Positions 125 to 59,695 of a stretch of DNA of 64,000 nt are shown here, in pieces. Location: assembly GCA_051362555.1 (NCBI GenBank), contig CM120642.1:30070001-30134000 (forward strand), in the 5' to 3' direction. The position numbers and the translations under genes are program-made. Below the pieces are notes generated by a model. The model was not told the DNA's origin and made no database searches. It saw only the letters and a program-made list of their open reading frames with translations. Origin of the DNA: Lingula anatina. Its lineage: Eukaryota; Animalia; Brachiopoda. Numbering within the stretch: the first letter of the stretch is position 1; the number at the start of each line of letters is the position of its first letter.

Positions 125-1129
125 GGGAAAGGGGAAATAGGCGAGTTGATCCATCAGAACTGATGTTCACAAAGAAAAATTTGAAAAAAGTAGATCTAAA
201 CCAGGGACGCAGAAGACAAGGTAATAAAGATGATTGGTGAATTGTCAGTGCAAAAAATATTTTTCTTTTTCACATATATTTGGTATTGCAGTTGATATAC
301 AGTGTACTTCTTTGTTTAAAGCTGTATGTACTAAGTTGTTTCAGTTGATGCTTATAGGCTGAGAGGACACGGCATGATATATATATCAATCATTCGATAA
401 ATTAAACATAAGTGTAGGTAATTTCTTGACATGACATTTCTACTTGTAGGCATCGGATTTAAAGAATTTTATGAAGATTTTAATCAAGCAGAGTACAAAA
501 AGTTTCCAGAAGAGGCCATCCACTATTTGCCAGTAGAATCAATTGTGGTAAGCAGGCCAGGGGATGATGGGTAGCTTTGATATGGGTCTCAATTTTCACT
601 TTTTGGCCATTGTACTTGGGGTTTTGGGTTAAAGTGGACATTGAAGTTATTTCTGAATGTTATTTTAGGATACCTACTGTAGTTATGTTTCAGAGTAAAT
701 ATACCATATACCTGATAGGCAAATACATATGCAGATCAGCCCTATGGTCTGTCCTATTTTACAGTGTAGTAATGTAAGTCTACTACATACTTTGACAAAT
801 AAGTTCAGATTGTTTGAATAGAAAATATGAAGATTTGGGTCGGTTTTGAAAAAAAAAAGTTATTTCTTTCATCTGTCAGTAATTTTGCTATAAATGCAAT
901 GTTTACATTTTGTATCTTGCAACTTTTCAGAAAGTAATAGAAAGAACTTTGCCCCCTCCCAGCATTCTTGACTTTAAAGGGTTAGATATGCTGACGGACT
1001 TCGTATTTGAGTACTTGATGCGGCGCAATGAAGAAGAGTCTTTGGAAGCAGCATTCACAGTCACCGCAATTGATTGTAGTGGTATGATGATTTTTATCAC
1101 TCACTTACTGTTAACTCTTTATTTATTTC

Positions 1130-1198
<69 letters not shown>

Positions 1199-4100
1199 TT
1201 TATTTTATTTTTTTTTTTTTTTTGAAAAATATACCTTCTTGGGTGAACCCCACTTGTTCCTTAAAATCATGTTCTTTTTATGACTTACAAAACAATCCTG
1301 GGAAAATTCATTTATTTAGTGTTCAAATTTAGAAAGTTATTGTGCTAGGTTCACATTTGGAAGAGACCAGTGATTAGCAAAGTTTATAGGGAAAATCATT
1401 TCTTTTTTATTGTTCTTTTTTTATTAATTGAATCATTAATTTGTCATTATAGTCTTTTGACTGATGTATGATATATGCTAATTTTAATTTTAATAAACCC
1501 ATGTGAGTGAGTGCCTTTTTTAAAATTCACTGAGAATAAAAATAATGTTAAAGCATTTGATGATGGAAGTTTAATCTAAATCCACTACATATTCACTCTT
1601 AAAAATCAAACATTTTATTCAAGTCAGTGATATATATAATACTTTGCATTTTTCACAGCAGAGCTTAGCATTGTTTGAATCTAACTAATACTACTAAAAA
1701 AATATATTTTTTAATTTCACTGTTCTCCAAAAATATTTGGCTTTAAAGTAGTATATGAGCATAAGCAAACACTTACAACAGTTGATTGATCTTTCAAAAG
1801 ATACACAAAGTAACAACTATTGTTTAATATAAATTAATAATTTTATTTTCTAGGTTGCAGATATCTTACTGATGAGGGTATTTTGCGTATGGTCCACACA
1901 TTCAAGTATCTCAAAGAGGTAAGATAAGTGATTTTTTGTAGACATGGCCCATTGGGGAAAACTTTGAAGATACTGAAGGTCTGTTGGACCTACACTAAGT
2001 CTTACTACATGTACTACAAATAAGAAATCTCCCCATTCAGTGTTGGAGCATTATATGTCCGTTAGGCTATGTTTAACACTGCTTTTTTTCTCAGTGGCTG
2101 ATGTGAAAATAGTGTATCTCATCATCCAAAGCTGTTTTTTTTTCAATATATTATTTTGAAATAAACTAACTAACAGTGTATTGTTTCTGCTTTGTATTTA
2201 ACTGACTCATTTAAATTTTACATAATTTAGGTTTTTATGTACAGACACAGATGTGTCTGTACATATAGCCATCATCTGCGTCTGTCGTCGCCGTCGTCGC
2301 CGTGCACTTTTACCGATAACACGATAAGTGGAAAACCATTTTACGTTTTGACTTGAAACTTGCAGAACTGATGAATATTCATAATACGCAGGTCAAGTTC
2401 GAAAATCAGCATGATCGGGTCACTTTTAGGGAATTTATGCTGTTTTTTCACTTTTTTCAGCATATATGCAGCACCGATAACACGATAAGTGGAAAACCAT
2501 TTTACCTTTTGACTTGAAACTTACAGAACTGATGAATATTCATAATACGCAGGTCAAGTTCGAAAATCAGCATGATCGGGCCACTTTTAGGGAATTTATG
2601 CTGTTTTTTCACTTTTTTCAGCATATTTGCAGCACCAATAACACGATAAGTGGAAAACCATTTTACCTTTTGACTTGAAACTTACAGAACTGATGAATAT
2701 TCATAATACGCAGGTCAAGTTCGAAAATCAGCATGATTGGGCCATTTTTAGGGAATTTATGCTGTTTTTTCACTATTTTCAATATAAATACAACACTGAT
2801 AACACAATATAAGAAAAACGGATTGGCCAATTGTAATTATACTCACAGGAGTGGTCAATCTTACTAAAACGCAGGTTGAGTTTGAAAATCAGCATAATCG
2901 GGCCATTATTTTAGAAGTTATACTGTTTTTCACATTTCCTCAGCTTCAATTATTAGGCATGTTAGCAGTCTCATTATTTAACTAATAAGATGCCTAAAAG
3001 TGTTTGTTTGATATTTCCTGCATCTTTACAACATTGTTAGTTGATTATGTAAAAAACATGGTAAACTTGTTATCATGTATTGTGTAATAAAGTGTCAAAA
3101 ATGGAAATAAACTCATATCATTGCAGTTTGTCAGATTCAATCATCCACTATGTTCAGAATCTCAGAATGGAGGAAATTGGACATTTAACACTGTTCTATT
3201 GATACTTTTCCCATCTCATCAATTTTCTTAGTTGGTCATATAAAATGGCAGTAAAATGTTTATTTTGTTTTATGTTAAAAAAGTGTTAAAAATGGAAATA
3301 AACCCATTTCAGAACAGTGCTGTCTTGTTTACATTTTGGCATTTTCAAGAAGTGACTTTGAAGTTCCATGGGCCTGAAGACCTTTGCTAGTCACATTTTC
3401 TGAATATCTGTGAAACAAATATTTTATAATTAAAAATTGATGGTCATTAAGCTGTTAAACATTATGTAATATTGCATCAAAATTTGAAGAAACCCCTATT
3501 TTGGGCACTGCTTCCATGATGACCATTTAAGGAAAATCATGTCACTTACTGTTCTCAAACTTACAGGAAAGAAACATGGGACTAAAATACAGCTTCAGTA
3601 GGCAATGCAGTCTGTTTGGTATTTTTATTTATTTATTTATTTTTTTTGGCAGTTAAACAGTTTTTTGTGAAAATTTAATTTTTCACATATTGGCATTTTC
3701 AAGGTGTGACTTTAAAGTTCCATGATCTTGAAGACTTTTGCTTGTCACATTTTCTGAATGTCCATGTTACTAATATTTTATTAATAACATTTGATTGTCA
3801 TTATGCTGTTAAACATTATGTAATGTTGCATCAAAATTTGAAGAAACCCCTATTTTGGGCACTGCTCCTATGCTGACCATTTAAGGGAAATCATGTCACT
3901 TACTGTTCTCAAACTTACAGGAAAGAAACATGGGTCTAACATACAGCTTCAATAGGCAACGCAGTCTGTTTGGTAAATTTTTCTGGCAATTTAACAGTTT
4001 TTTGTGAAAATTTAATTTTTCACTTATTTGCATCTTTATTTTCTGTTCTTTGTCTGTACATTTGACAGCTTTGCTGCCTTGTTTAATATTATAAATCTTA

Positions 4101-7100
4101 CCTTCAGGTTGTATTGGATGCCTGCCCTCTGCTCACAGAGATGTCTTTACTCTACCTGCTTGACCTCGAAGAAATAGAGGTCATCTCTATGAAAGCCACG
4201 GCAGTGTCCGTGGTCACCTTCAGTCTCAAGGACCACCCACAGTTGAAACATGTGAACTTGGAGGGATGCCCTTTACACACACCCTTTCCAAGCAATCGGG
4301 GCATTCTTCACAGCATTACAAGTGGGGACATTGGAAGAGAATCAGAGTTAAGAGGTAAATAGAAAGTTAGAAGTGAATGGATGAAAAAATAAATTGATGG
4401 ATGAATGAATGAATGAATGAATGAATGAATAAATGAATGAATGAATGAATGAATGAATAAATGAATGAATGAATGAGGGATGGATAGATTGATGGGTGGA
4501 TGGGGTCAGATGGACAATGTCTAAGATATTTATACAAATTAACAATTTACATAAATTATATTTATTTACTCTCTTTCTTTTTAACAATGTTTTACATTTT
4601 GTGGTTATTATAAAAATAGTCAAAATTGCATCATTCTAGTAATTAATTGGTTCACTGGTCCTCATAGGTTATCTGAGAGAGCTGACTGCAAATCACAAAG
4701 TGATGATGAATATGGTTGTCCTGAATATGTACACACCGTTTGGTTTTACACACTGGCTGGAAACTGGGGAGAAAAAAGAAAATCAGGAGCCATTCCACTA
4801 TCTGCCAGCCTGTGAAGTGAATTTTCCTATTAATACTCCTGATGGAAGGAGCTGGGATCATGCTAGTTATAACATTTTGGAGATAAGTGAAGGTTATCAG
4901 GTACAGTTTGTGTGGCTTTCAAACAGACATTTTTCATGATTTGAATAAATAAGAAATCTGTTTTTGTTTTGCATTTTATTTATTTATTTTTATTATTATT
5001 ATTTTATTTATTTTTTGTTATTGGTTTCCCACCTTAAGCAGCTCTCATTCTTTTTTGCATTTTTTTAAAAAATAGTAATTTTCACAAAAAAAGTACATTA
5101 TGGCATAGTACTACACAAAAGAATATTAGGGATTATAATTATGCACATTTCTGCCATTGACCAATTTTAGTAAACCACTTTATTCCTGCACCAAACCTGC
5201 TGGAGAAATTGAATTTACAATTAGAATCTGAAATAAAGCTTATTGATCTGCTTTGAGTGACAGGGTGGTTTTATTTGATTGACACTTCAGTTGACTGATT
5301 TATAGATAAAATAGTTGAATAGTTGAATACCCAACTACCAGATTCCGGGGTATGATAACACCTTGAAAAGGGGTAGTGTGGTCCAGTCTGCCGGTGAATT
5401 GGTGATCATTCGATGCTGAGTCTGGTAGTTGGGTAGGCCTGATAAATTTATTGATAAATTCAATAATTGTTTTTTTTTTTCTGATTCTAGGGATTTGAAC
5501 ATTTGTTTTTATCTGAGAGCAACCTTATAGTCATTCCGTTCCTGCTGTCCAAGTTCTCATCACAGGATGAGGTCCAGAAATGGATTTTGTCAAGGCACAT
5601 ACAGCTGAGCAAGTACAAGGTACAGATATGTACAGATGTATAATTGTTATTTATATATAAGCAGCATACACATATACGGTAGTGCACACCTTATTTCTGA
5701 TAATAAAATTTTGAAAAAGACAAAAAGAATTAGCATATTTTAGGAAATGGTTTGAAAAATTATTTATGTTCCAGAATGATTACGCATCCTAGCTTTTGTA
5801 ACATTCAATTACTTTCATCAGAATTTTGCTAAATATTATTTAATAGATGATAAAGTTATCTTGCTTCATTGATTTTTATTTTATTCATTTGTTATCTTGT
5901 CTCATTTTTTTCTTTGAGCAGCCTCTCCAAATTGTGTTTGCATGCATCTCGGATGGGAGAAAGGAAGAGAAGGACAAGCACCCAGATGATAGTGCTGTTG
6001 AAAAACTTTTTAGAAGTTGGTGGCCAGATGTGCTATTGGAAAAAGTCCTACAAGATGAAGAGTGAGTTATATGGAATTGTTTTATCTTCTTTTTACTGAA
6101 CAGTGGCACAGTTTGTGTTTAGTTTGAGCTCTGTTTTAAATTTTTCTACTTTAAATTTAGTCATTATTATGGAGGTACATGTTTTTGACTTTGATAGTTT
6201 TAATTTCCTTGTTTATTTACTTTTTAGTTAAATTTATTTATTTGTTGTTTTTATGATTGTTCTATTATTTCATTTTTTGTTGTTCTGTTAAATCAGATTT
6301 ATTTACTTACTTATATATTTATTGTAGTAATGACCCCACCTTCTGATTTCAGTTAAAATTAATTCTCATTATTGCACAAGTGATTCTCTTCTTTTTTTTT
6401 TTTTGCACAAAATAATTCATCATAATGCAATGGATATACTTAGTTTTAATCAAATATTGTGAACTCTATTTTTCATGAAGGTTTCTTCTAGCCCCCGGAA
6501 CTGTTCAGAACTTTAAATTCAGTTGCCAACAGGAACACATGGACTATGAAATCCTTCGTATGAACAGGGTGGCACCAAGCATCATTAATCTTAATCTTGA
6601 TGAAAAGGCAAGTGATAAAATACCAAGTGAAAATAAGTTGTTTCTAGGGCCCTTTCATCAAGAGAAGATAATTAATAGTAAGACTGACATTCATCACCAG
6701 CATTTCTGAAAATCATTATTGTAATCAAGTGATTTTTATTTGCTATTAAATGATAGGGGGTGTGCATTGGGCCTTTTTTTTCACATACGTAGTAACATTA
6801 TGAGATGCTTCTGCAAATTTTATTATGATATTCACTTTCATTTTCGTGAGTTTTAGTAATTATTATGACATTAACTCTATACAATTTAGCTCCCTCAAAT
6901 AATCTGTTACTTTAATTTTCTTCTTTAGGGATGTGTTCAACAATTCTGGAGAAAAATGGCGCAACTGGTCAGATTTTACCCACGGGTCAACTGGATTAGT
7001 TCCCCAGAGTTGATAGCAGTTACGGGTGCCGTTCAACGGTTAGGAACCAAGCAGGGAATATGGGCTTTCTCCGAGCTATATCAGGCATTGTTGGCAGATC

Positions 7101-10100
7101 TTGAGGGCTGTAAGTTGTCCAGTTCTGTAGAGGAGAAGTCGCCCAGTAGTGCCAAGATAGGAGAAGAAGAAGATACGCCCTTTGACACTGGCCCAACGTA
7201 CTGGCAATACCAGAAGGCCATTGAACGGATGTGCAAACAGGTAACTGAAGAACATCTCATGAGTTGAATTTGGTTTGAACAGTTGAATCTTTCTTTAAGA
7301 AGTGAAAATTTAAATTTAAAGTTACATTTGAATATCTCTCAAATAGATCGAGTATTGTGCATTTTAATACATTTTATTTATTTACAAATTTCGATTACTT
7401 ATATTTTAAGTAATTATAAAGGCATGTCTCTCTTCTTGTAGGGCCAGTGTCTGTATTTCCCTGATATGAGACATCAACCAGTTATCATAGATTTCTCCTG
7501 GCTGAAGACTGAACTCAACAAAATTGTCTCTCACGGTGACGGCAAGATCCCCTATGACCAAGAGAAGATGTCTGATACTAAGGTTTTTATATTTCCTAGT
7601 ATTGAAATTGGATTTCAGAATCTCAGGTTTGCCTATTTATGCCTTCATTGCAGTTATTTAAAGACCCAAGCTCTTTCACAATAGAGTTATGATCATAATA
7701 ATTATACCTCTCTTTAAATACTGTAGTAAAGTAATCATGAATAAACTTTACATTTAATTTTTCATTTTAGATGGCCATGCTTTTCAAATTACTGGAGAAA
7801 TGTGGAATTCTCATCCAAAGGCCACGACAGTATTTGCTGGTCCCTAAATTGCCAGCTGAACCAGATATACCAATGGTAAACTAAGGGCTTATTCCCAATG
7901 CAACTATTGTTCTACTTAGATCAATCCAATGCTGGGGGGACTCTCCCTGAATGCTATCTCATTAACATCTGAACACGCCTCTCCTGGCATTGATAAGAAT
8001 ACAGAAAAGCTGGTGATTATATGAGAATGTTGGAGACAAGAGGAGTCGTGGATTGATCTACTCAGAATGATAGTTTCACTGGGAATGACCCTTATGGTGA
8101 ATTATGGTTTATAGCTTTTAGTCTTTTTAGGATTTTTTCCTCAGGAGCTGTCCAAATATCTGAGATATTCTTGTATACTAGCAGTGTGCTACACTTAGTC
8201 TAGTTTGATGTGAAGGGTTCTTGTGATCATTGATAAAGTGGTTATAATATTTTTAGATAAATTCAGTAACAAATAGAAATTCTTTTCTTTCTCATGTTAA
8301 AAAGATTTTTAATATTGTATTGTTGGTATAAATAATAAAAACTGAGGCATGTCCATATGATTTGAGAAATAGTTATTAAGTGCTTAATATTATTCAGGAA
8401 TACTGCTGGTCAGACTGCCCAGATAGCAATGAAGTCCAGTTGTCTAAAGGCTGTGTGATCGTTGAAGATATCCCATTGGGGTTCTTTCCAGTGCTTCTCA
8501 GGTGATTTGGGCTCATTTTCAATGACACTATTGTTTTATGTAGATTGGTCCAATTCTGCATGGACTCTCGCTGAATGCAATCACATTAACAGATCAATTA
8601 TCATGCTGCCCCCTGGTGTTTAGTAGAATACTGAAAAATTGCTGAGTATGACAGTATGGTGGAAATAAAAGAAGGCATGTTAATTTAATGAACTGATTGT
8701 ATTAGCGGTAGCCCTGTGGAGTAGAATTGATCAGCATGGAGCAATAGTTTCTTTGGAAAATGAGCACTAAGACAGTCATGAAGCAAAAATCAATTTTCTT
8801 TTTTTTTCTTTTTTCCCCTACATTACCATAACATTATGCTCTATCTGAGACCATTATTGGCATTTTCAACTTAAGATATGTTAACCTTATTGTTAACCTT
8901 ATGCACAGAAACACAGGCCTGTTTGTGATGTAAAAATGCTCATATGCCATCAAAAGGCTTACGTTTTGTCCTCCCCAAATTTTTTTGCTATAATTTAACC
9001 AATATTCTGTGGCAGACAGTTTTGTTGTTGTAATGGCTCTGAATTTGTCCAATCAGGGAGTGCTCTAAAATTGCTGCGAATCCAGTGCTATGGCAAAATG
9101 GCCTCCTTGCACAGCATGGGGCAGTCACCTTACTGATTGAGAGAAGAGAAACCACAGCATACGAACTGGGTAAGAACTGCCAGATAACACCACTGTATCA
9201 TACCAGTTGTTTTCCTTCTCTTTTGCTGGGGTCAGCAGAATTTGGCTATTCTTGATAACTGCTGCCATCTAGTGACCTTTCCAAACCTTATCCATGTTTT
9301 CCATCTAAGATGGACACAGTGTGGAGATAAAATACTCTAGTTGATAATTTAAAATGTTTATTTTATTTGTAATGAATAATATTTGAAAAGCGTATATAAG
9401 TCACAATTTATGTTTAAACTTAGTCATTACTAAGTGCAGATATTACAATTGATATATGCTGATGTTGAATATGATGTGCGAATTTCATTTTAGAGGAGTT
9501 CTTGGAACCAATTAGATTGAAGACACCAATGAAAAAGGGACCGATGAAGAAAAAAGGGGGGAAGAAGAAAGCTCCAATGAAGAAAGCTCCAATAAAACAA
9601 GCTAACTCTAAACTGAAATCATCTCTGCTGGAAGATGATGATGATGATGATGAAATAGGTTAATTGTCATTGAACTTGATATACTGTTTGAAAGCATGTG
9701 TTTTTTGCTAGGCTTTTTGATTAAAATGTTGCAGTTGTTTAAATGACAGTGAAAGGGGAATGTTTGATTTATAACATAATGTACCAGAGTGTATTTAATA
9801 CTTTATTTATAAAAGGGTCTTATAAAAAATGGAATATTGCATATTTTGTGCATTAAAAGCAATGGAAAAAAATTAACATAATAAGGAACTCCTATAACCT
9901 TTAATGCCACATTTACAATTGACTAACTAATCCGCAGGTCAGATGTGGCTGACCCACTTGGAAATCTATTCAGTGTCTGTTAGGGTAGCCATATTTGATC
10001 CTCAGACTAGTTAGTCCACTGTTGTGAATGTGGCCTAAAACCATTTATTAAAAGGAATACATTAATTTTAGGATAATACTTTCATTGCAGAAGCTGAATT

Positions 10101-10433
10101 GAAGGCAAAGGCCCTACCAGAGCATACTAACATCATCTACATTGCGGTGCGTGCCACTAAAATGTTTGCAGAGGAAGAGGTGAGGAATCAGCATGCTCTG
10201 ATGTCCTGCCTGTGGTCTACACTCCTCACCTATGTCACCATAATGAAGTACGTGTGCCAGAAGTTCAAGGTGTATTGTCAGGTAGGGATGTTTTTTTGAA
10301 AATACTGTTTTTATAAAAGTATGACCTAATATTAGATTTTCCAAAGCATTGTTTTAATACTAAAATGACTGTGAGTAATTCCTGTTTATTTATTTATTTT
10401 TTTCAAAAGCTGTCAGAAACAAGTAGGGAATAT

Positions 10434-10464
<31 letters not shown>

Positions 10465-10871
10465 GTGAAAGTGAATGAAAATGTGTATGAAATATCATGC
10501 ATAATTTAAATATGTTTTATGCACTCAAGAAGTTGTAAAGACGTTACAACTTCTTGATGTTGTAATTTAGACCCCATAGAAGATAGTAGAATAAAAACAA
10601 CAGCAAATGGTTGCATGACATTATGTTGCTCTCACAGAATAGTTATTTATAAGACCAACAATCAAAGTTTAACATTCTGAAACAATTTTTTATGCAGTTT
10701 CTCACTCCCTGCCCACACAGTGAGACGTGTCACAGCAGGACGAAGTTCTACCAGCACAACATGTTGTCTAACAGAGACGCCACTAATGTAGTGTCCAGGC
10801 TGAAGTGTGCACAGTGCAAGAAGGACGTCAAGGTGGAGGAAATACTGGGGCCAAGTGAGTGGTGCACAGAT

Positions 10872-10922
<51 letters not shown>

Positions 10923-11293
10923 TTAAGATTGGGTCATTCTTGGGCTTTGGTGGAGTTAAAAGGCTGTTATAGTGATTTTTTTCCTTGGCCTTTTTTTCTT
11001 TGCTGCCTACCCGCCATATTCCTGTTTAAAAAGATTTAATTTAATTTACTTTGTTATTTTTTTTAAACTTAATTTTGAGAGATAAATATGTGTTTTCCAG
11101 ATGATTTCAGTTTTGTGAAGCCTGGAGGAATTGCCCCCACACATACCCTGGACCAGGTCAAGTTTGACACCAGCCCCCATGTAGACTACAGCAGGTGCTT
11201 TCTGTGTGGAAACTGTGCCTATGAGGGGATTGACTGCCCACAGAATGGAACACATGGAGAGACAATTTAGTATGTATTCAAAAAAAAAAAAAG

Positions 11294-11361
<68 letters not shown>

Positions 11362-14300: not shown

Positions 14301-14672
14301 CATAAGTGTGTCATTCTAAAATCATTGTAAATATTTACTGGATGGGTACATCTTGCAAACACTCTTGTTACAGTATTTTCAATAACAGTTATGATCTTCT
14401 CTTAAACATTTTGATTTATACTGAAAGCTGGAAAAGGTATTTACAAAATTTACCATTTATTTTCCAGCCCTGCATGAAGATTGTCCACAATGTAAAGAGA
14501 AGAATGAGGAAAAAGCTTCATCTTGTGAATTTTGTGGAACCTCTCTGAAGAAGATGGGTAAGTGGCATGTGTTTATTAATCATTTTGTTGCTTTAATGTC
14601 CAGAGATGTTATGTATGAAATAGATGCCAAGTGACAAAAAATGTAATGTTTACAGCCTTCATTGTAAGTTAT

Positions 14673-14742
<70 letters not shown>

Positions 14743-20263: not shown

Positions 20264-20294
<31 letters not shown>

Positions 20295-23200
20295 GGAGCA
20301 TCCATCATGAAGTTCTGAAACTTTTAACCTATAGAATTTAAAACCTTCATAATCTGAGAATTGAGTAATAGATTAATAAAAATTTAATTTATCTATTTTT
20401 TTGTTTATTTTTGTCTTCATAGTCTGGTGAAAGCCATTATGAGTGGCGGTGGTGTTGGGGAGACACAAGAGGCGATACCCCAGGTGACTGATGGGATAGA
20501 TATCTGTACTTGGACTGTAACACGAGAAAAAGAAACTGTCAGCTATTCTGTGTGGGATTTCGCTGGGCAAACTGTCTACTACAATACACATCAGGTGGGT
20601 GCAAAGATTGTGAATTTGGAAAAATAAGATTAAATATATGATTTTATGAAAAGAAATAATAAACCAGCAAAAAGTACAATTTTAAATTTAAAAAAATTAT
20701 AATGTTGCCTCACCTCAGTATATCAGTTTTCCTCCAAATGAGTTTTTTTATTATCTTTTTTTCATATTTGTTTTTTTTTTTTTTAATGATTTATCTATTT
20801 ATTATATTAATATTATTCCCTCTCTTTCAGTTCTTTCTCTCAGACAGAGCAGTCTATCTCCTCCTGTGGAACATCCGCCAAGGTCACGAGCACGCTGGGC
20901 TGGACTTCTGGCTGAACTCCATAGCCGTCCATGCTCCCAAGGCCCCCATACTGGTGGTGGGCACTCACCTGGACCAGGTGTCCAAAGTGGAGATTCCTGT
21001 TGAAGAAATGCAGCAGAAATACAGCCAGATTAAAGGATTCCATTTTGTCAGCTCTCACAGTGGACAGGTGGGTACTGGATTGTGGTAGGTGAGACAGTGT
21101 GAGTTTTAATACATTGTGTTGGGTGAGACACATTGTGTTGGGTGAGACACATTGTGTTGGGTGAGACACATTGGACTGTATTTTGTAAGCTATATCATAC
21201 AAGGCACAGCAATGTGTAAGGTGAGGGTATACAGCAAAGTACATCCAAATAAAAAGAGTTTAGTCTATCTGTCTCTGTGGACAGGTGGTTAGAATAGCAT
21301 GTTAGGTGAAACAGCACTAATAAAGCACTGAAACAGATACATTGCGTTAGTTGAGATCCAGGATATTGTGCAAGATCATTGTTTTGGGTAATATTGTTAT
21401 GGAAATTCAACCTGTTGGAGAGGTAGCTAAATTGGCTAGGAAGGTAATGTATTAGGTAACCTTATTTATTTATTTTGTTCATTATTTACATAATATTTCT
21501 CTATGTTTGTTCGTTTTCTAAACTTTTTAAAAAATTTTTTAACTTTAATTTTTATATAATTATATTGCAGGGCATAAAGGACCTTCAGGAAATGTTGCTT
21601 GATGTGACTTTAGAGCAGCCCTACATTGGAGAACAGATCCCTCAAGTATGGCTCAACCTGGAGAAGGAGATTATCAAGTGAGTACAATTTTTATGTCATG
21701 TAATGTGTTGTGGTGTGTATGAATATGTTTTGATGTCATTTTACAAGAATTTTGCTTTTAACTTTCAGTTGACAATGAAAAGTTGTGCACTGTCAATGTA
21801 TTATCTCAATAAAGCAAAAAATATATACATACTTGTATATACATATCCCATGACATATTTAATGGATATTTCATTGAGGTGTTAGGTTACAGTATCTGTC
21901 CTTATATTCATAAAAATGTATAGTGCATAACTAGATTAATTCTATGTGACTTATTACACTGTTTACCCTTCCTGTTAACTTGTTATTTTTAGGTTGAGAA
22001 CTACAGAAAGTGTAGTCTCCTATGTTTCCCTAGAAGATTTAGCATTGACCAAATCAGGAATATATGATAAATCTGAGGTAAAAATCATGATATCATACAA
22101 AGTACACTTTAAGACCCCATTTCCAGAGATTAGATCGATCTACTTTAGATCGACCTAACTCCCTGGGGGTTCATGCTAAATAGCTGTCAGCCGAGCGGAC
22201 ACGAAAGTTAATTATCCCCTTACAGCTTGTAGTAGGCGGGACGGACATTTAAGCCGGATTATCTGACAGTAATCTAGTGAGACTCCCCGGGGGGATAGAT
22301 CGATCTAAAAGCTCTGGGAATACAGCCTAAGAGGCTGAAAATTACAATACCCTGGCTATTATATATTATCACGCCCCCTGGTGTTGAGTAGAATACAGAG
22401 AAGCTGGTGATTAGATGAATACGTTGGAAAAAAGAGGGGGCATGTGATTCTGTTAATCTGATTGCATTCAGCAAGAGTTCCTGTGGAGTTGGATCGATTT
22501 ATGTAGAACAAATTTCATTGGGAATGGGACCTTATGTGTAAGTATACCATTTGATGTGGGAATGTCCAAACTGTTCCTGTTCACTTTTCTTTCACTTTCA
22601 CTTTCATTTTCCTTTCACTTTCACTTTCACTTTCCAGGTCTCTCAAGCTGTGCAGTTCCTGCATGAGTTAGGAAGCCTGCAGCATTTTGACAACAATTTC
22701 CTCAAGTCACATGTGGTCATCAACCCCCAATGGATTGTGGACGTGATGTCCTGTGTGGTGTCTGTCAATGACTCGCACATTAAGGTGGGTAAAATGGAAC
22801 TGTTTTCATGCACTATAACATACTGGTATTGTGACAGGGAATTTTTCTGACCAGCCTAAAACGGTGTGTGCCAGAAACTTTTTAGTGTACTGGCCCACTA
22901 GAACCTTAGATAAGACAAGACTTTGAGTGGGGTTTTATGTTTAAAACTTGAAAAAAAATCAACAGTTCATAGATTTGAAATGTTACCATTAATTTGAAAA
23001 CTTGTGAAGAAAATGTAAATAATGTCATACTATATTTTGTGCATAATGTGTCCTTTTGTTTACATATGGATTGCATGGCTCAGTGGCACATGCATGGAAA
23101 AATTGCCTCATTATTTTACCGTCAAAATTTTTATCCCTGAAACATTGATTTTTCTATATTAGGATGGCTACTTCAACCACACAGACATTCCCAAAGTTTG

Positions 23201-24897
23201 GGAGGATTATCCCGCAGATCTCCACTGGTGGCTTCTTCGTCTCACAGAGGAGTATGATCTGACTTTCCAACTCCCAGACAAACCAGTCAACCTGGTGCCA
23301 TGCCTTCTCCCCGAGAAACAGCCTCACTTTGATTGGCCAGAACTTGACAGAGAAAATGGAGAAAGAGAGGCAAAGATGATTTACAAGTTTGATTACTTGC
23401 CTGCTGGGTTGTTTAACCGAGCACAGGTGAGAGAGACAGATGTTGAGATTTTTTTACCTGCCATTGGATGTTTTTGGACCCAAGCTAGAATACACTAGTT
23501 TTCAAATTGATTAGTTATTTATAATTAAATGTGTTATGTGAACAAAAATATTTGGCAACATGACTTTGTAAAATTTGGTTTAATTTCGGCATGGGTCCAC
23601 TGTAACTTTATTCAACTACATTTCTGATGTTCTTGTAGGTACGACTGTATGAGTTCTCTGATAGCTCTGTGATCTGGAAGAGGGGCTCTAGGCTGAAAAA
23701 GAATGACCACATTGCTCTCCTCACTCAGTTTAGGTAAATACCAGATATTGGACAATACCATTACTTCAAAAAGGCATTACTATATTGTGGTTAAACAGAA
23801 AATATTTCAATGGTTTAGACGTGATGGTTTATAAGATACTTTAGTTCGTATGTTAATGTGGCAATGTTGCAAAATTTTTTGAGTGAATTAAGCTGTACAT
23901 GCATGAAGGGAAAAATCGCCATAAATTTTCAAAGATAGTTCGTAGTTCTTAATTTGCATACAGTGTTATAATAGATTCATGGCTGTTTCTCAAATTATTT
24001 TTCACATTTCATTTCTTGTCTAGGTCTTTTAACTTAACTAATTAATTAATTAATTAATTAATTTATGTTTTCAGAGACTCTGAGCTGCATGTGAAAGTCC
24101 AGGGGACCACTCCAGAAAATGTCCTCTTCCTGGTCCATGAGGTGTTTGAGGGGTTGATCACAGAGTCTTTCCAGGGGGTGGTGTACGACTACCTCATGCC
24201 CTGTCCAGACTGTTCCAAGGCTGTAAGTATATAAACTTGGTCTGAGGGGTCATCCATTTTCAGGGGCGGATCCAGAGCTTTTTCTGACAGTCTTCCAAAT
24301 TATCTTTGTTGGTCCATCCTCCATTTTTCACCATCTTCTGACAGAAAAAAATTGAAACCCATCAATGTTAACTTAAAAATCTGACCGTCTTCCGGAAGAC
24401 TCAGAAGACGGCCTAAATCCACCCGATTTTTATCAGGTAAGTTTTTCACAAATTGGACAAACCTACTAATAGTATGCTGGGGTAGCGGGTTCATGTTCTC
24501 TGTGTGCTTTTGGAAAAAAGATGGGGAAAGTGCCTAGTTTGGACAAATATAACTGAATCTTTTGGCTTGAATTACATGTACGCAAAAAATTCTGGCTGGC
24601 TCTTTATCCCAAGGAGTAAACTTTTTCCAGACCCTCCCCCCCAACCCCCTGTTCAGAAAAATAGTGTATGATGATAATATTTCAGTTAAATTAATTATTA
24701 TAAAAGAATTAATGATCTATTTTCAATCTTCCAGCATGCCCGTGACCCTCACATGTTTTCAGCCTCCTCCATCAGAAGAGCTACACAACTTAAGGCACCT
24801 TTCCTGCAGTGTACCAAGTATTTCCATGTCATACCTCTGACAGATCTACATAGTAAGTTTTATTTTGCAGTTAAGATATAGCCATGTTTTTATTATA

Positions 24898-24937
<40 letters not shown>

Positions 24938-27900
24938 TGTCTTTACATGAACGCGTAGATAAAAAGATCTACAGTTGATTGAGTATTTGAATGATTAATT
25001 GTTTTAAATAATTCATCATTCCTTAATTTGTTTATTCACTTAGATCTATTCTTTTATTTGCAAGTTGCTATGAAAATATTATCAATTTATTACAGGTATG
25101 ATGCCCCCAGAGAGCAGCACAGACTATGACCTGCAGCTTGTGCAGACTGTGAGAGGATTGACTGACCTGAGGAAAGACATGTCAGCAGGTAAAAATGTGC
25201 TGTTGTCTCAACCAGCTTGGCACAACTAACACATTCACATCCTTGTACAACAATTTCAACAGTTTTAATTAGTGTTTGCCCTAATAAGTAAGGGCATGGT
25301 AAAAGCATTATTATTTTCTCAGCAGGTGTGTTATTCAAATAGAACACCCATAACTATGCAATGACATGTATTTTTGGCAATTGGAATGTTAATATGTTGA
25401 GTTTGTTTTCAGATATCTTTATCTCATATTGTGCGAAAGATGTTCCAAAGAAAAGCGAGAAACGTGTGGCCCCAGTGGATGTCTGCAGAGACTTGGAAGA
25501 GGCAGGATATAGATGGTGGGTTAAGATAATTCGTTTTTCCTTTTAAATTTCATGATCATTTTGATTTTAAGATTATTATTGAAATTCTGTTTCATGTTTT
25601 GGTATTAAGATCATTAAAAATTCCACTAGGTATTAAAAACTTATAGTCACATGGTTTGCTAACTCTGTTAACCAATCCATTTGTTCCACAAATAGTGTTT
25701 TTTTTTCAATCACCAAAATAACAGTCATTGTGCAATGGCCATTTGCATGGTTTCCAGTTGGATGGCACAGTGATTGGTACCTATATAGACCAGTTGAGAG
25801 CTAACCACTTTATTTTTTCTCTTTTTTTTCTTTAGCTGGTTCCAGGAGGACCCCAGTTCCCAGAGCCTCGAGGTTACGGCCATTGCTCTACGAGATGCCC
25901 GGGTGTTCCTGGCCTGTATATCTGACAACTATATTGAAGACCAAGACTGCTGTGCAATGTTCAAGTATGCCTGCACCACACTCAGGAAGAGCATTGTGCT
26001 GGTTGTGCTAGGGGATAGCATGAACTGGCAGACCAGTCAGATTGGATTATTGGTTGCAGGAGAGGTAGGTTATGGAAGTGTGTTAGGTGTGACCGTTGAA
26101 ATGTGTGAGGTGTGACAGTGCAAATTGTGTCAGAATGTTAAAGGGATAATAACTCTTCGTTTCGGCCAAAAAAAAATTATTTTCCTGGAGTAAACAACAA
26201 TTTTCCCATACTTACCAATGGTTAATGAAGCCATATTTACATTCAAAGTAAGTCCCTGTTTTTTTCTCAAAAGTTTTTTTTTTTTTTTTTGTTAAAATCT
26301 CTTAAGAGATTTTAACAGAGTATAGACATCAATGGAGGTCACGTGGTCTAAAGACAAGCTCAGATATCAGAATAATAGCTATAACTGCCGTTTTTGTGGT
26401 AAAACAGAATATATTATATTTCTATGAGTTATTCACAATGTTTTTATTGTGAAATATAGACCTCATACGAAGAGTTATTATCCCTTTAAGTGTGACATTG
26501 AAAAAAATATCAGCTGTCTGTTTATTAGTGTTAAATAAGTATACATGTAAAATTTATGCAGTGCACAACACATTACTGGCAGTACGAAGCAGTATTAGAC
26601 TATGTATTATTTTTCAATAACTTGATGCAGAAAACCATTAGTGTTTTTTACACTGTCAGAATGACAAATTTTACAAATTTTAGTATTTTGTACTTTGATA
26701 ACTTTTTTGTCCCTTTTACTATATTTTGACTCTGTATCCCAAATGCATTTAAATGAACTCTCAATCTTTTGTTGTTCTAGGTTTATGTGAATATGCAGCA
26801 GAAGGACAAGTACACATCCAAGCTGGAAGAACTGGCAAAGAAACTGGATATGAACACACTTTTAAAGAAAGACGAAGCCATTGATTACCCACCAGTGTTC
26901 ATCAGCTATGCTTGGGCCAACTCTGCTCGTGCTGTTGAGTTAGGGACCCCAGAGAAAGAGGGTGCTGCAGGCTTTGGTGATCCAAGAGACTACAAAGACT
27001 TCCTGGAGAAGAATGGGATCAAGTGCTGGCTTGATGTTGAACAAGTTGGAGCTGTAAGTGTTATTGCAGTTATTCAGCTTACAAACTGTCGCAAATTGCT
27101 CTGTCACACCTAACACACTGGAACATTCTGTACTGTCACATCTAACACACTGACTTTCTGAACTATTTGTCATTCTTTTATTAAGCTAATCATTTAATTT
27201 ATCCATTCATATTATTAGGTAAGATGATGAATCACACATTTATAACATATATATAAGTTATAACTCAAAGAACACTCATTTTTCACCTTCAGAATGGTCT
27301 GTTTGAAGACATAGCAGTGGGTCTCCAGAATGCCAAACTGGTGGTGGCCTGTATATCTGATCAGTATGCTGAGTCCACCAACTGTAATATGGAGTTCCGC
27401 TTTGCCAAGACTGCCCTGAACCTGCCCATTATTGTGGTGACGGTGGGCAGGGGACAGATGTGGAGGAAGTCTGAGGTGAGTGTTGTCCTGCTTGTGTTCT
27501 CATATCTGATAGGTTTCTGTATGACATCCATTGGTTGAAGTTTTCAGGATTGTGTCTGATTTCAGGATTTTTAGTCTTCATTTTGATCTTTTTTTTTTTC
27601 ATTTAGTCTAAGTACAATAAGAAATTGCAAGGTATGTTTTGGGGATTTTCAGTTTTAATACCTTTCACCTGTGATTATTTATGACACCATATCCACCATA
27701 TAACAATGATCATCATAATGTATTGTTACAATTATTATCCTCCTTTTTATCCTTTTTAAACACACTGTTGCTCTGAACATCACACATGGTTATTTTTTTA
27801 ATATAAGGTTGGAATACCAGTGACATCATTTCTTCCTATTTTCTTACAACTGAAAACAATGTCATACTTTATAACATAATGTTTACATGTACCTAATTAC

Positions 27901-30900
27901 AGGTGGGCATGTTGTCCATTAACTACCCAGTGGTCAGCCATGATGATACTGACCAGCTGCTGAAGCTTGTCAAGGAAAATTTACCAAGTGAGGTACAGCA
28001 ACCAGTCTCCAATGAGACCAAGGAGAAGAAGAAGGAGAAGGAACAGGCCAACCAACAACAGAAGAATACATCTTTCCAGGTAGAAAAGACGCACTTTGCC
28101 TGTGTTTTTTAGCCAAATGTCTGCAGTTTTGCAGAGAAAACCACAATATGTCACAAATTAATGCTGAAAATACCAATTTAAGCTGCTATTTACTACATTT
28201 CTGAATCATTTCTGATGTACTTCTTTTCCTTTCATAGGAACTGTATGAACTTGCCCAGAGAAAGTTCTTACGTCAGGTTGCCAAACTTGCTGACTCATTC
28301 AACATGGAGGCATACCCACGGCTAGTGGTCATAGATCATATGGACACAGAGGAAACAGAAGAGGGTAAAATAGTTGAACAAGAATAGGAGCATTGTCTTT
28401 ACACAAAGATTTTAAGATTATTACAGTTCAATGACTTGTCTGGCAATCTTTAGCTGGTGCTGCTAAAAAAATTATGTGAATACGAGTGCCAAATGTTATT
28501 CAATTTAACCAAAAATATCTAAGTTTTCTTTCCCTTTTGAATTTTGATTCTGTGTTTTTGAACAGGAGAAAAAGAATCTGAGAAAGAAAACAGCAAAGAT
28601 GCAGAGAAAGATGAGGAGAAAGAAAAAGATGAAGAAAGGAAACTTTCCACACCTCACGCCTTCAGTAAAATAAAGAAAGATCACCCACATGGACAGAAGC
28701 ATTGTTATCGGGTGCTGTGTGAACATGAACAGGTATGTTGGTTAATACAGGTGCTATAATGTTACTGTGTTGGTTCTGAAACATCTCACTAGAAGAGATT
28801 TAGTTGATTCAATGACGAAATTATGGAATTTTAGTCTTTTTTATACATCACCCCCTTTGCTTGTATCTTTTTGTAATAAAAGAAAGTTTTGGTAGGCTGT
28901 TTTTTAACCCCAGCATAATAGAAACTTTGCTTTATGTTGAAACATTTTGAAATTAAAGCAAATTCAAAGAATTGAGTTTCCAAGAAATTGCAAAATGTCT
29001 TCAATATTTAAAATACATTGGGCAGTCCAAATATTAAGTGTTTTACTACTTTATTTGAAAAATTTGTGAAACTGAAACAATTGAGTACACATTGCATGCA
29101 AGGAATTGGCTTTTGAGAGATTAGTGAAAACCAGCATGTACTCCATGAATTTGATTTTTTTTCTATGAAGGCCTGGCATACTACTGGAGACAGCTTATAT
29201 ACCCTAATATGATTGATACCTTAATTTACCTGAATGTACAAAGTGGAGGATTTGTCATCATAAATAATTAGTTCAGTTGAGATGCTGGCATATTGTATTG
29301 TTGGTGATTTGGTAGATGCTCTGTATGCTACCCTTTTGCACATATTGATTATTTATATCCCCACTTAGTTTAATGACAGGCTATAGTCCATGAGCCAAAT
29401 TGAAAAGAGCTTTATTTAAGGATTTGGCTGCACCCCCCCCCCCCCCCCCCCCCCCCTTAAGGCAAAGGTTTTATGATTGATTCATGTAGTTTAGAACCTG
29501 AATTTTTTTTATATTTCTGCTTGTTTCTGGATTTAAAAAAAAGAATATCACATATTAGTGATCTTTGCCATATGGTACTGTCATGCACAATGTACAGTGT
29601 ATATTATCCATAATTTGAATTGACTTTTTGATTTCAGGGCTGGCATGTTGCTGGTGATCCCATACCTGCTCCAAACATGAATGATACATTCCTGCACAAG
29701 TTGATTCCATATCTGGCTCGCATCATGGCCATTGTGAAGCACAGCAAGCACATTACACTGAACTGCATCAGTGGAGAGGAGGGAGAGCAGTTCCTCAAAT
29801 GGCTGGAAGAGGTAGGATGGAAGACAGTGCACAGGCCTGTAACCAGAGGGTGGGGGGGTGAACAAACTGCCCTTTTTTGCCTAGAAAAGTAAATTTTTAT
29901 CTAGGCACACAGATCTCATGGTAAAAGGTCCACTTTTTCTGAAAAAAGACCCCAACCTCCCCCTTGAAATTCCTGGCTACGGGCCTATGATTAACTCAAA
30001 CATGCGGTTGATGATTACAAACTCTAAACCAAGAAGTTTGAAAAAGACTGATTATTTTACATATGTAATTTAAGATCATTTCTAGTCAAGTTTTAATTGG
30101 TAACCTTGTACAGGCTGACCTTTGAACTTCAAAAGTTAAAGAAGCTTTACCGGGACTTGTGTCCAGTTCCAAACATACATATACAAATAAAAATCAAAAC
30201 ATTTTACCCAAGTTATCTCTGAATTAAATCATGCAAGATGCCTTTTTGTAGTAAAAAGATGTTTGGTATTTCAGACACCTAGAAATGCTGTATCAGAGTG
30301 GCAGGATGTCTACAGAGATCTCCTCCAGGAAGTATTGAAAGCTGATAAAGACAGCACAATGGCAGGTCTGGCAAGGTGAGAGAATTCCCCCTAAGTCTTA
30401 CAGTCTCATGGTTTGTTCACTAGATGACACTTGGTGTAGTGTGTGGAAGATGTTCAGAATTTTTCACAAGCAAGATAAGCGTAGCATTAAAAAGAGTCAT
30501 CTTTAAAGTTAAGTTACATTTATGTCTTGTCATTACTCTGTGTAATATAGATTACATCTTTTTTTCTAGATACTTTCTACATTAGCATTTTAATTAGATT
30601 CCACCCTCAGACTTCATATTTTTAATTTTCCAGATGTCACCTGCCTAGTGGTAAAGTAGCCTGGCTGTGTGAAGGGCACCGTTCTCAAGGTCGCATCACC
30701 GTCCTTAGCTCCACTGGCAGCTCAGCTGTGTCAGCGCCAGATGCTGGGAAAGAGAACTTTATGTTGAAAGCATTAATGGCTCCTGACAACCAGCTGACAC
30801 TTAAGTACAAGGCACACAATGAGACACAGATGGCAGGTGAGCTTAGCTTGAAGTGCACTGTGGCAGAATTGTGTTATTCTGTAATGTGAGTTGTCATTGT

Positions 30901-31490
30901 GTTAGTTGTGACATGGTTGAGCCAAGATTGTGTGCTATTCATGTTGTGTTAGGTGTGACTGTTAGCAATTAAATTTACTTAGGGTTCTTGTATTTTGTTA
31001 CCTGGGTAAGATTGTGATTACAGGTTCATTTTTATTTTCTAACTATGAATAGTTTCTATAAAACATGACTATTTAATTTTTTTAAGAAGTTATAGATTTT
31101 AAGTAGGGTAATTTGGTAAAAATACTGACAAAATTGACCTTTTTAGTCAGTAATAAAGATATATCGCAAATTTAACATATTCAAATTAAAAATCAATGTC
31201 GTAATACTCACATCTCTTTCATTTCAGCTGCAATGAAAGACAAAAAGAAGGCAGAGACAACACAGAAACCCAAGTCAGGTAAAACCTCTCGTCCCTCAGA
31301 GACAGGACCTCCCAGTGTCAACCCATTGGTGGCAGCTACGGCGAATGCCATGACACTTGACGCTGTGCAGAAGACAGCAGCAGCAGGCAACAACAGCCAG
31401 AGAACTAAGGCCAGATTCAAGGCTGCGGGCATTGCGGCTGCAGTAGCTGGTCAGAAGAGAAACTCCAGCCAAACTTGTGTTATTTTATAG
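125..31490 (+). CDS. Giant multi-exon ROCO-family protein (LRR-pseudoROC-COR ... LRR-EF-ROC-COR-TIR-TIR-CTD-CaaX), 5' end outside window
   Basis: Manually spliced exons, all AG/GT except one GC donor, phases consistent, total 9098 nt (2 nt + 3032 codons incl. stop): 125-220, 450-547, 931-1081, 1854-1918, 4108-4354, 4668-4900, 5491-5619, 5922-6061, 6481-6607, 6929-7240, 7442-7582, 7771-7875, 8398-8501, 9057-9169, 9494-9658, 10091-10281, 10698-10854, 11101-11269, 11521-11596, 11969-12216, 12901-13066, 13307-13447, 13723-13852, 14138-14248, 14468-14557, 14808-14878, 15175-15265, 15587-15664, 16092-16217, 16726-16901, 17473-17529, 17853-17978, 18288-19016, 19386-19506, 19763-20114, 20423-20594, 20831-21067, 21571-21677, 21993-22077, 22638-22784, 23163-23426, 23639-23733, 24075-24222, 24735-24852, 25096-25188, 25413-25515, 25836-26064, 26781-27053, 27293-27475, 27903-28079, 28238-28364, 28566-28732, 29638-29811, 30275-30375, 30634-30836, 31228-31490 (TAG). 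Confidence 0.88.
931..4354 (+). CDS. ROCO gene: N-terminal cysteine-containing (F-box/AMN1-type) LRRs
   Basis: Spliced IDCSGCRYLTDEGILRMVHTFKYLKEVVLDACPLLTEMSLLYL ... LKHVNLEGCPL matches the LxLxxCxxLTD cysteine-containing LRR consensus. Confidence 0.75.
1131..1198. repeat. (TAT)n microsatellite
   Basis: Direct reading; source of poly-Tyr in the ORF track. Confidence 0.95.
2313..2935. repeat. Tandem array of 161-bp units (about 3.8 copies)
   Basis: Unit starts ccgataacacgataagtggaaaaccatttt at 2313, 2474 and 2635; a diverged fourth copy starts near 2796. Confidence 0.92.
3335..4030. repeat. Tandem duplication of about 355 bp (2 copies)
   Basis: ggcattttcaag..gtgacttt..aagttccatg at about 3338 and 3692; ccctattttgggcactgct and gcagtctgtttggta recur at the same spacing. 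Confidence 0.88.
4403..4475. repeat. (GAAT)n microsatellite
   Basis: Direct reading. Confidence 0.9.
4668..10854 (+). CDS. ROCO gene: first, degenerate ROC-COR module
   Basis: Aligns by eye to the second module: HLFLSESNLIVIPF vs HQFFLSDRAVYLLLW; AIERMCKQGQCLYF..PVIIDFSWL vs AVQFLHELGSLQHF..HVVINPQWI; IPLGFF vs LPAGLF; LWQNG vs IWKRG; TPCPH vs MPCPD. No GxxxxGK[ST] or DxxG motif. Confidence 0.7.
5328..5435. mobile_element. Small MITE-like element
   Basis: Perfect 15-bp terminal inverted repeat tacccaactaccaga/tctggtagttgggta with TA ends. Confidence 0.6.
7882..8114. mobile_element. MITE family A copy
   Basis: Ends taagggcttattccca...tgggaatgaccctta; core cctggc.ttga.tagaatacagaaaagctg shared with copies near 8600, 22375 and 33682. 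Confidence 0.65.
9902..10038. repeat. Imperfect foldback/MITE remnant
   Basis: gactaactaatccgcaggtcagatgtggctgaccc is inverted-complementary to gggtagccatatttgatcctcagactagttagtc; outer arms gccacatttaca/tgtgaatgtggc. Confidence 0.55.
10870..10924. repeat. (ATTT)n microsatellite
   Basis: Direct reading. Confidence 0.92.
11707..11905. repeat. Intronic tandem duplication, about 111-bp period
   Basis: caaagttacatttag...ttcagataattcaactta...ttctcatgagaatat at 11707 and 11818. Confidence 0.8.
14675..14740. repeat. (TA)n microsatellite
   Basis: Direct reading. Confidence 0.95.
16413..16540. mobile_element. MITE family B partial copy
   Basis: cttagggtgcattcccagagatttaga...tagatcgacctaactccctggggg...gtcagccgagcg matches 22110-22331. 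Confidence 0.6.
16985..17148. mobile_element. MITE family C copy (CAGGGGCGGAT-type ends)
   Basis: Reverse-complement match to 24261-24426; both give a spurious KWRMDQQR translation in the ORF track. Confidence 0.7.
18288..20040 (+). CDS. ROCO gene: second LRR array with EF-hand insertion
   Basis: Typical LxxLxLxxNxLxxLP repeats in exons 18288-19016 and 19763-20040; exon 19386-19506 encodes FFDEDSNGLLDEKEI. Confidence 0.92.
20070..24852 (+). CDS. ROCO gene: intact ROC GTPase and COR domain
   Basis: KLMLVGLGGVGKTSL (P-loop), TDGIDI (switch I), VWDFAGQTVYYNTHQFFLS (switch II), PILVVGTHLD (G4), FVSS (G5); COR motifs FLHELG, INPQW, LVPCLLP, YLPAGLF. Confidence 0.96.
21089..21172. repeat. 19-bp minisatellite (gggtgagacacattgtgtt)
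   Basis: About three near-perfect units plus a degenerate one. Confidence 0.8.
22110..22534. mobile_element. Adjacent or nested MITE family B (22110-22331) and family A (22370-22534) sequences
   Basis: Family B end tctaaaagctctgggaatacagcctaag; family A core ccctggtgttgagtagaatacagagaagctg and end tgggaatgggacctta. Confidence 0.6.
24261..24426. mobile_element. MITE family C copy, inverted relative to the 16985 copy
   Basis: Begins caggggcggatcc, ends aaatccacccga; a further partial copy lies at about 35408-35481. Confidence 0.7.
25413..27990 (+). CDS. ROCO gene: two tandem TIR (TIR_2-type) domains
   Basis: TIR1: DIFISYC...LEEAGYRCWF...ARVFLACISDNY. TIR2: VFISYAW...LEKNGIKCWLD...GLFEDIAVGLQNAKLVVACISDQYAESTNCNMEFRFA...LPIIVV. 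Confidence 0.9.
29832..29987. mobile_element. MITE with CAGGCCCGTAGCCAG-type ends
   Basis: caggcctgtaaccag ... ctggctacgggccta. Confidence 0.6.
31476..31490 (+). other. C-terminal CaaX prenylation motif (CVIL*)
   Basis: tgt gtt att tta tag ends the final exon, after the basic stretch QKRNSSQT. Confidence 0.8.

Positions 31491-59663: not shown

Positions 59664-59695
<32 letters not shown>

Follow-up and report, generated by a model that had tools for sequence, protein, structure and literature searches.

Proteins that combine leucine-rich repeats (LRR), a Roc GTPase domain and a COR domain with TIR domains have been described from several invertebrates. The closest to the one considered here are the ecTIR-DC 14 II proteins (Gerdol et al. 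2017, via PMC6321704), which include TrispH2_001486 (2,928 amino acids (aa)) and TrispH2_004509 (3,019 aa) of Trichoplax. In the layout of the PDF of supplementary file 1 of PMC6321704, the labels of TrispH2_001486 run LRR, P-loop NTPase, SH3, MBT, chromo, EF-hand, Roc, COR, TIR, TIR; the available portion of that paper proposes that ecTIR-DC proteins are adaptors or regulators, and terms any function prediction speculative. For Aplysia, the accessible text of PMC9334734 describes ROCO-TIR 'TLR-like' proteins, LOC101848126 (with MBT) and LOC101845043 (with an EF-hand), and proposes a GTPase TLR signaling cascade, and the accessible text of PMC5094078 describes a sea-anemone protein, NG1, as LRR-Roc-COR-TIR_2. 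In bacteria, LRR-AP-GTPase(ROC)-COR-effector proteins are predicted counter-invader systems, and the excerpts of PMC8195603 already propose for them the use of a GTPase in place of a STAND module. Here we describe a gene from the brachiopod Lingula anatina that lies in a 64,000-nucleotide stretch of DNA (assembly GCA_051362555.1, contig CM120642.1, positions 30,070,001 to 30,134,000 of the forward strand; hereafter the window) and whose product is a member of this catalogued, uncharacterized invertebrate family. The product is read in a single frame. It contains two LRR-ROC-COR modules, with GTPase motifs kept in the second alone, two TIR folds, with the alphaC glutamate kept in the second (TIR2) alone, and a C-terminal CaaX box that is found across the family. 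We give roughly even credence to the reading that it is a prenylated, membrane-bound ROCO GTPase switch that gates cleavage of nicotinamide adenine dinucleotide (NAD+) by TIR2, most likely in innate-immune or cell-stress signaling.

An earlier note on this DNA, made from its letters alone, did not recognize the full architecture from any characterized protein. Because placozoan proteins of ~3,000 aa with nearly the same domain list had been published as ecTIR-DC 14 II (in the part of PMC6321704 available), the architecture is not new, and the profile searches that the note had called for lead to a family that is catalogued, yet uncharacterized.

Results

The gene model and its principal domains

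The gene comprises 56 exons and 55 introns on the plus strand, all in phase, which were placed with the L. anatina RefSeq model XP_013412619.1 (3,150 aa; P0077 in our set) as guide. Intron ends are GT-AG in 54 cases and GC-AG in one (after 6607), and every junction is in the frame of XP_013412619.1; at 5 junctions two sites fitted and one was picked. When spliced, the allele in the window gives 3,032 codons whose sole stop is terminal, and it shows 29 differences and 0 indels relative to residues 119-3150 of P0077 (99% identical). The largest exon (18288-19016) matched a L. anatina RefSeq protein at 100% listed identity, and the cluster of that protein includes XP_013412619.1. Because the first exon in the window, which begins at 125, opens behind an AG, the gene is 5'-incomplete here, with residues 1-118 encoded upstream. 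The exon count, exon coordinates and stop-free reading proposed in the earlier note were right, and its protein of more than 3,000 aa agrees with the length of the RefSeq counterpart. The principal features are as follows.

125 to 31490, plus strand: coding span, 56 exons, residues 119-3150 of 3,150 (start codon and residues 1-118 upstream of the window)
949 to 4345, plus strand: N-terminal LRR, residues ~190-335 (model confidence (predicted local distance difference test, pLDDT) 70-90 in the first 80 residues; family profile)
4688 to 6524, plus strand: predicted pseudo-ROC, residues ~345-520, without a GxxxxGK[ST] P-loop (hhalign against the C-terminal ROC of the same protein, P 57%, E 1.1e-4; Foldseek)
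6929 to 10713, plus strand: first COR, residues ~548-930, with a basic/acidic low-complexity insert at ~805-860 (hhalign P 97%, E 7.6e-11, 158 columns; Foldseek matches to Roco proteins)
18420 to 20064, plus strand: second LRR, with an inserted EF-hand loop at 19410-19445 (Pfam LRR_8 E 1.1e-19; EF-hand_7 just E 0.24)
20065 to 21592, plus strand: ROC GTPase, residues ~1980-2140, G1-G4 intact (Pfam Roc E 2.6e-21, 1983-2101)
21640 to 24846, plus strand: second COR-A and COR-B, residues 2156-2452 (Pfam E 1.9e-30 and 5.8e-30)
25415 to 26832, plus strand: TIR1, predicted to be catalytically dead, with Met2560 (codon 25957) in the Glu column (L 51, M 27, I 18 and E 1 of 111)
26892 to 27939, plus strand: TIR2, with invariant alphaC Glu2720 (codon 27392; E in 111/111, on helix alphaC of the model)
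28059 to 30689, plus strand: C-terminal domain with motifs C-E-x-x-x-G-W-H and W-L-C-x-x-H, a predicted metal site (116/128 proteins; conserved columns)
31476 to 31490, plus strand: CaaX box CVIL and stop, preceded by a basic stretch (6 basic and 0 acidic among the last 30 residues)

Two ROC-COR modules, one with GTPase motifs

The double-ROCO design put forward in the earlier note is clearest in the second module, where Roc and COR-A/B are all above the Pfam cut-off and the EF-hand loop is canonical. COR-A (2156-2294) and COR-B (2313-2452) directly follow Roc, and G1 Gly/Lys/Thr, G2 Thr, G3 DxxG and G4 Asp are kept in 110-111 of the 111 aligned core sequences, so that the C-terminal half has the ROC-then-COR order and the intact G1-G4 of a ROCO protein; judged by these motifs, the second ROC is likely a functional GTPase. 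The canonical EF-hand loop pattern is present in 64/118 family members. The names 'kinase pats1' and 'serine/threonine protein kinase' in RefSeq/UniRef were rejected because Pfam shows no kinase domain; TIR_2 directly follows COR-B. Nor was there a Pfam match at E<=1 to NACHT or NB-ARC, the NTPase being Roc. The NLR-like logic with a GTPase suggested in the earlier note is therefore reasonable as a comparison, and already proposed for bacteria (excerpts of PMC8195603), although the NTPase of an NLR itself is not present among the Pfam matches.

In the N-terminal half, Pfam gave no match above cut-off before residue 1650, and a word-indexed search with residues 150-1600 returned 0 matches among 4,488 candidates, a blank that reflects the sensitivity limit of the search, since the region exists in homologs found via the C-terminal core. 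In profile-profile alignment against the second module the COR alignment is clear, and that of the pseudo-ROC, in register from strand 1 through G4, is suggestive. An AlphaFold2 model of residues 235-1428 (28 sequences, mean pLDDT 50.5) gave 30 Foldseek matches at E<=0.001, and all 28 displayed are LRRK1, LRRK2 or the Roco protein of C. tepidum, at 9-17% identity and with template modeling (TM) scores of 0.13-0.27 by query. Moreover, the profile of the second module found 8 real N-terminal parts at E<0.001 versus 0 shuffled or reversed controls (one of these being a separate Ras domain). A P-loop is present in 1/74 aligned rows with letters (Trichoplax P0182) and is lost in Lingula and the other rows. 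The N-terminal module of the Lingula protein thus has the LRR-ROC-COR fold and lacks the P-loop and DxxG; because of this motif loss, we infer that it is a pseudo-GTPase ROC-COR, which fits the degenerate first ROC-COR of the earlier note. Weighing against this assignment, the Lingula pseudo-ROC taken alone is weak (single-sequence E 0.0014, a value tied by 1/500 shuffles; profile E 0.26), and model pLDDT over it is about 35-70.

P0182 of Trichoplax adhaerens is the sole member seen with an intact N-terminal P-loop together with a G4-like motif (residues 190-300), and it has no DxxG; it may represent an intermediate stage on the way to losing the first GTPase. A comparison by eye showed no obvious sharing of intron positions between the two ROC-COR modules, and the duplication of the modules is therefore not dated by them.

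Tandem TIR domains and the catalytic glutamate

Both TIR_2 domains named in the earlier note were borne out by Pfam and by a model of residues 2481-3023 (pLDDT 82.5), which shows two TIR folds (fold Z 14-16, up to 15.7) and places Glu2720 on the helix after strand C. The profiles of TIR1 and TIR2 align in register (P 99.9%). The earlier note had treated the two alike; the glutamate at the catalytic position is in fact kept in TIR2 only (111/111 versus 1/111), and mean identity across the 111 sequences is 54% for TIR2 versus 36% for TIR1. We take the spacing S-x-x-Y-x-x-S-x-x-C-x-x-E to mark the catalytic Glu of a TIR domain. In Foldseek, the TIR model matched SARM1/TIR-1 best; the TIR2 exon alone had no sequence match in the PDB.

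The available portion of a 2026 preprint (10.64898/2026.04.20.719644) reports Glu-dependent synthesis of cyclic ADP-ribose (cADPR) by invertebrate TIRs and, in the legend of its Fig. 3, includes Roc, COR and LRR among parent architectures; the TIR of a family member may already be among those assayed. The same source counts against TIR2 being an enzyme in that just 12/61 Glu-bearing animal TIRs were active, the Glu-bearing TLR2-type TIRs being among the inactive ones. So do the VIA Z-scores, in which adaptor TIRs tie with or top SARM1 (Hydra TRR-2 15.7, MyD88 14.9, SARM1 14.6). Accordingly, we considered that the tandem TIRs might be non-enzymatic, the protein being a GTPase scaffold tethered to a membrane, to which MyD88-like or other TIR proteins are recruited in a pathway of the TLR type. 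The equal match of adaptor structures and SARM1, the 49/61 tested animal TIRs that were silent despite their Glu, and the Aplysia cascade and ecTIR-DC adaptor roles proposed in the accessible text of PMC9334734 and PMC6321704 all favor such a scaffold, but a Glu kept in 111/111 TIR2 domains beside 1/111 TIR1 domains is hard to account for without catalysis, and we regard the scaffold as unlikely. We thus retain a catalytic TIR2 as the preferred reading.

The C-terminal domain and the CaaX box

The domain that follows TIR2 has two invariant-looking Cys/His clusters. No fold match to it appeared in the lists obtained for the model of residues 2481-3023, which TIR matches filled. The tail of a metagenomic LRR-Roc-COR protein matches it (E 8.5e-6 among 75); residues 1161-1198 of this protein (P0013) share the W-L-C-x-x-H tail, which hints, at the sequence level, that the TIR pair may have been inserted into an older ROCO frame.

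The CVIL ending pointed out in the earlier note proved to be a conserved CaaX box. A C-x-x-x end is found in 97/120 listed homologs, and in 92/104 of those reaching the end of the C-terminal domain, against a background of 2/75 unrelated LRR proteins. No transmembrane-like window was found (top 19-residue hydropathy 1.42). The final Leu of a CaaX box favors geranylgeranylation, and CVIL is probably prenylated and would hold the protein on a membrane.

Continuity of the gene across the 11-18 kb stretch

The N-terminal and C-terminal halves might instead be two neighboring genes fused by annotation. In favor of such a fusion, a second copy of the locus on a 38.8-kb scaffold is annotated by RefSeq as two models (a 573-aa partial and a 1,405-aa model) that are split at the equivalent of window position 15664/16092, and the representative library holds 5 proteins of 631-1,348 aa that consist of the N-terminal half only. 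The two halves nevertheless share one frame across a 427-nt intron with GT-AG sites at 15664/16092. Furthermore, all 73 of the 73 homologs of at least 2,700 aa that were examined, from several phyla, combine the N-terminal COR with the C-terminal ROC-COR in a single protein, and 68/73 also have an N-terminal LRR/ROC. (There are 76 proteins of at least 2,700 aa among the 120 listed; 3 were left out for want of a full C-terminal ROC-COR match.) Alignments run unbroken across residues 1400-1500 in 18/120 listed homologs, and the 16 introns within 10854-18288, at 219-684 nt, are of sizes like those in the rest of the gene.

RNA reads from 4 runs (same species label, tissue unstated; 6-25% of each run's reads) were placed over 14800-20700, where plus-strand exon coverage has a depth of 0-6. 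They join 4/10 introns at GT-AG sites (14878/15175, 15265/15587, 16217/16726 and 20114/20423), and spliced plus-strand RNA flanks 15664/16092 on both sides. Speaking against continuity, 6/10 introns, 15664/16092 included, fall below the RNA listing threshold at this depth. No pile of read starts or ends is listed in the interval, which at a depth of 0-6 is weak evidence against a split. The look for a split in RNA that the earlier note had called for is therefore favorable at four introns and in the lack of a pile, and leaves the 15664/16092 joint unconfirmed. On the strength of the fused homologs and the ordinary intron sizes, the single chain across 10854-18288 that the note proposed is very likely, and two fused genes are highly improbable.

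The central region and its variation among relatives

Between the two modules lie three further features.

10848 to 11987, plus strand: Cys/His-rich domain, residues ~975-1065, predicted to bind zinc (profile matches 65/128 proteins)
11972 to 14825, plus strand: lineage-variable slot, residues ~1060-1360, with a SPRY/Neuralized-like lead and then a CxxC-x10-CxxC ribbon (among 128 proteins only the Lingula paralog P0079 matches; Atlas lead)
14825 to 18360, plus strand: conserved unnamed domain, residues ~1360-1620 (110/128 proteins; no Pfam match at E<0.4)

Of the middle domains in the earlier note, the Cys-rich one stands, and the SPRY-like one is no more than a lead (its Atlas feature score, 0.87, is below the bar of 0.9; TM 0.47). 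The MBT-like one was rejected for the Lingula protein (no Pfam match at E<=1; TM 0.31); paralogs carry MBT in the slot equivalent to the variable slot of Lingula. The note's domain list left out the conserved domain at ~1360-1620. The model of residues 1067-1428 has a pLDDT below 40, and mostly below 30. Extra domains in relatives comprise PLAT, C2, MBT/chromo/SH3, and SPRY or a dynein-stalk match. The latter, to the dynein microtubule-binding stalk (PF12777), occurs in P0137 (at 450-568, in the N-terminal half), P0120, P0151, P0163 and P0144, and may be a coiled-coil artefact. P0128 (Owenia, 3,850 aa) has a full Ras-family domain at its N-terminus (residues 21-189), which could reflect either a genuine fusion or the merging of gene models.

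Family distribution and an alternative role

A word-limited homolog search with residues 1880-3000 found 136 proteins, of which the best 120 are listed. They come from molluscs, annelids, nemerteans, rotifers, a flatworm, a nematode, a hemichordate, amphioxus and Trichoplax; vertebrates, arthropods and cnidarians are absent from the named rows among these best 120. In a quick tree built from 53 rows chosen among the 111 (midpoint root; support by approximate likelihood ratio test, SH-aLRT, only), the Lingula protein and its paralog P0079 fall in a 23-row lophotrochozoan clade (SH-aLRT 100), apart from the MBT, SPRY and dynein-stalk clades.

This pattern bears on the immune role, which is a conjecture from the architecture, and it tells against it: the subfamily is low-copy and mostly follows the species tree, unlike expanded receptor families, and the low copy number and a core identity of 50-57% between Lingula and molluscs are no less expected of a conserved signaling part than of a fast-evolving receptor. 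The enzyme logic could thus be right and the role non-immune, with the protein acting as an LRRK2- or SARM1-like monitor of membrane or organelle damage or of calcium that brings about trafficking changes or local degeneration. Also consistent with such a monitor are the EF-hand loop in about half of the members, the membrane-binding PLAT or C2 domains that abalone and oyster orthologs have in their N-terminal half, and expression that is low and unremarkable in the 4 RNA runs. However, TIR plus LRR plus NTPase is a recurring immune theme, bacterial LRR-ROC-COR-effectors are predicted to counter invaders (excerpts of PMC8195603), and the central slot differs among lineages and paralogs. We view a non-immune monitor as a minority possibility to be taken seriously, and keep innate-immune or cell-stress signaling as the favored setting.

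Other features of the window

Intron 4 is the only intron longer than 1 kb (2,189 nt) and holds a tandem repeat of ~161 bp at 2320-2900. At intronic positions 16417-16540 and about 16970-17150, tens to hundreds of RNA reads pile up on both strands with loose ends, and are therefore probably from high-copy interspersed repeats; similar text recurs near 22110-22320. On the minus strand, the exons at about 55100-63400 belong to an intermediate-filament gene: taken singly, they match Pfam Filament (E 6e-9) and, in a lamin-tail-like part, LTD (E 0.0015), neither reaching the cut-off.

Discussion

We suggest that prenylation of CVIL would hold the protein on a membrane, and that the nucleotide cycle of the second ROC-COR would alter how it self-associates, as happens in other Roco proteins; the accessible text of PMC6337361 describes, for bacterial Roco, dimers formed through COR and a cycle between monomer and dimer. 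Self-association of the second ROC-COR would then join TIR2 domains and lead to hydrolysis of NAD+ or formation of a cADPR isomer. TIR1 would serve as a dead structural partner of TIR2, and the regulatory and input half would be formed by the dead LRR-ROC-COR together with the variable slot and the EF-hand LRR. The state of TIR1 and TIR2 recalls RPS4/RRS1, in which an active and an inactive TIR are paired.

A bolder version, which we think rather improbable, is that the family is an ancient immune receptor of animals whose core is a GTPase and not a STAND ATPase. A putative cis pseudo-dimer of the dead and live ROC-CORs would hold the dead/live TIR pair off until a ligand at the swappable slot (SPRY, MBT, PLAT or C2, like integrated decoys) frees it at the membrane, whereupon TIR2 would make a cADPR-type messenger. 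If true, a pathway from sensor through switch to enzyme would have been retained in one chain from placozoans to amphioxus.

The family has been catalogued since 2017 without a function, and our dissection points to K1994 (GTPase), E2720 (TIR), C3147 (anchor) and the dead module as directly testable. Should TIR2 prove to be an enzyme that ROC-COR controls, LRRK-type switching would be tied to animal TIR nucleotide signaling, and the protein would offer a natural model of a pseudo-ROCO regulator.

How does the Lingula protein compare with described systems? With ecTIR-DC 14 II, as given in the part of PMC6321704 available, it shares a size of ~3,000 aa, the absence of a transmembrane helix, and LRR, EF-hand, Roc, COR and two TIR domains, and it is homologous to the placozoan members; the figure for TrispH2_001486 further labels a P-loop NTPase and another set of LRRs. 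Over 82% of the core, P0182 of T. adhaerens has 46% identity to the Lingula protein; it also has the N-terminal COR in common and was found by both N-half profiles; because of the domain list, we infer that it is the counterpart of TrispH2_001486. The two differ in that the Trichoplax protein keeps an N-terminal P-loop and has SH3/MBT/chromo, whereas the Lingula protein has lost the P-loop, has a SPRY-like lead and belongs to a separate lophotrochozoan subfamily. The accessible parts of PMC6321704 list no first COR, dead TIR1 or CaaX; in the literature searched, mostly outside subscription journals, we found no mention of the dead first ROC-COR, the TIR1/TIR2 difference or the CaaX box.

The Aplysia ROCO-TIR proteins and NG1 have the same LRR-Roc-COR-TIR order and, in the accessible text of their sources, no known function. 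LOC101848126 (P0124 in our set) is 46% identical over the core and has a CaaX end, but lies in the paralogous MBT clade; LOC101845043 and NG1 are not among the best 120 of the 136 homologs. LRRK1/LRRK2, MFHAS1, DAPK1 and C. tepidum Roco share the LRR-ROC-COR core, from which the Lingula protein departs in having no Pfam kinase or WD40 match, two ROC-COR modules, a TIR output and a CaaX box. The bacterial LRR-ROC-COR-effector systems, as excerpted from PMC8195603, likewise have an LRR sensor, a ROC-COR switch and a C-terminal effector, which can be a TIR; they have one ROC-COR, a variable effector and a rapidly evolving LRR, whereas the effector end of the Lingula family is fixed and conserved. 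Finally, SARM1/TIR-1 and the plant TIR-NLRs share with the Lingula protein a TIR fold with an alphaC Glu; the Lingula protein differs in having no match to ARM-SAM or to NB-ARC/NACHT, and in having a ROC GTPase as its switch.

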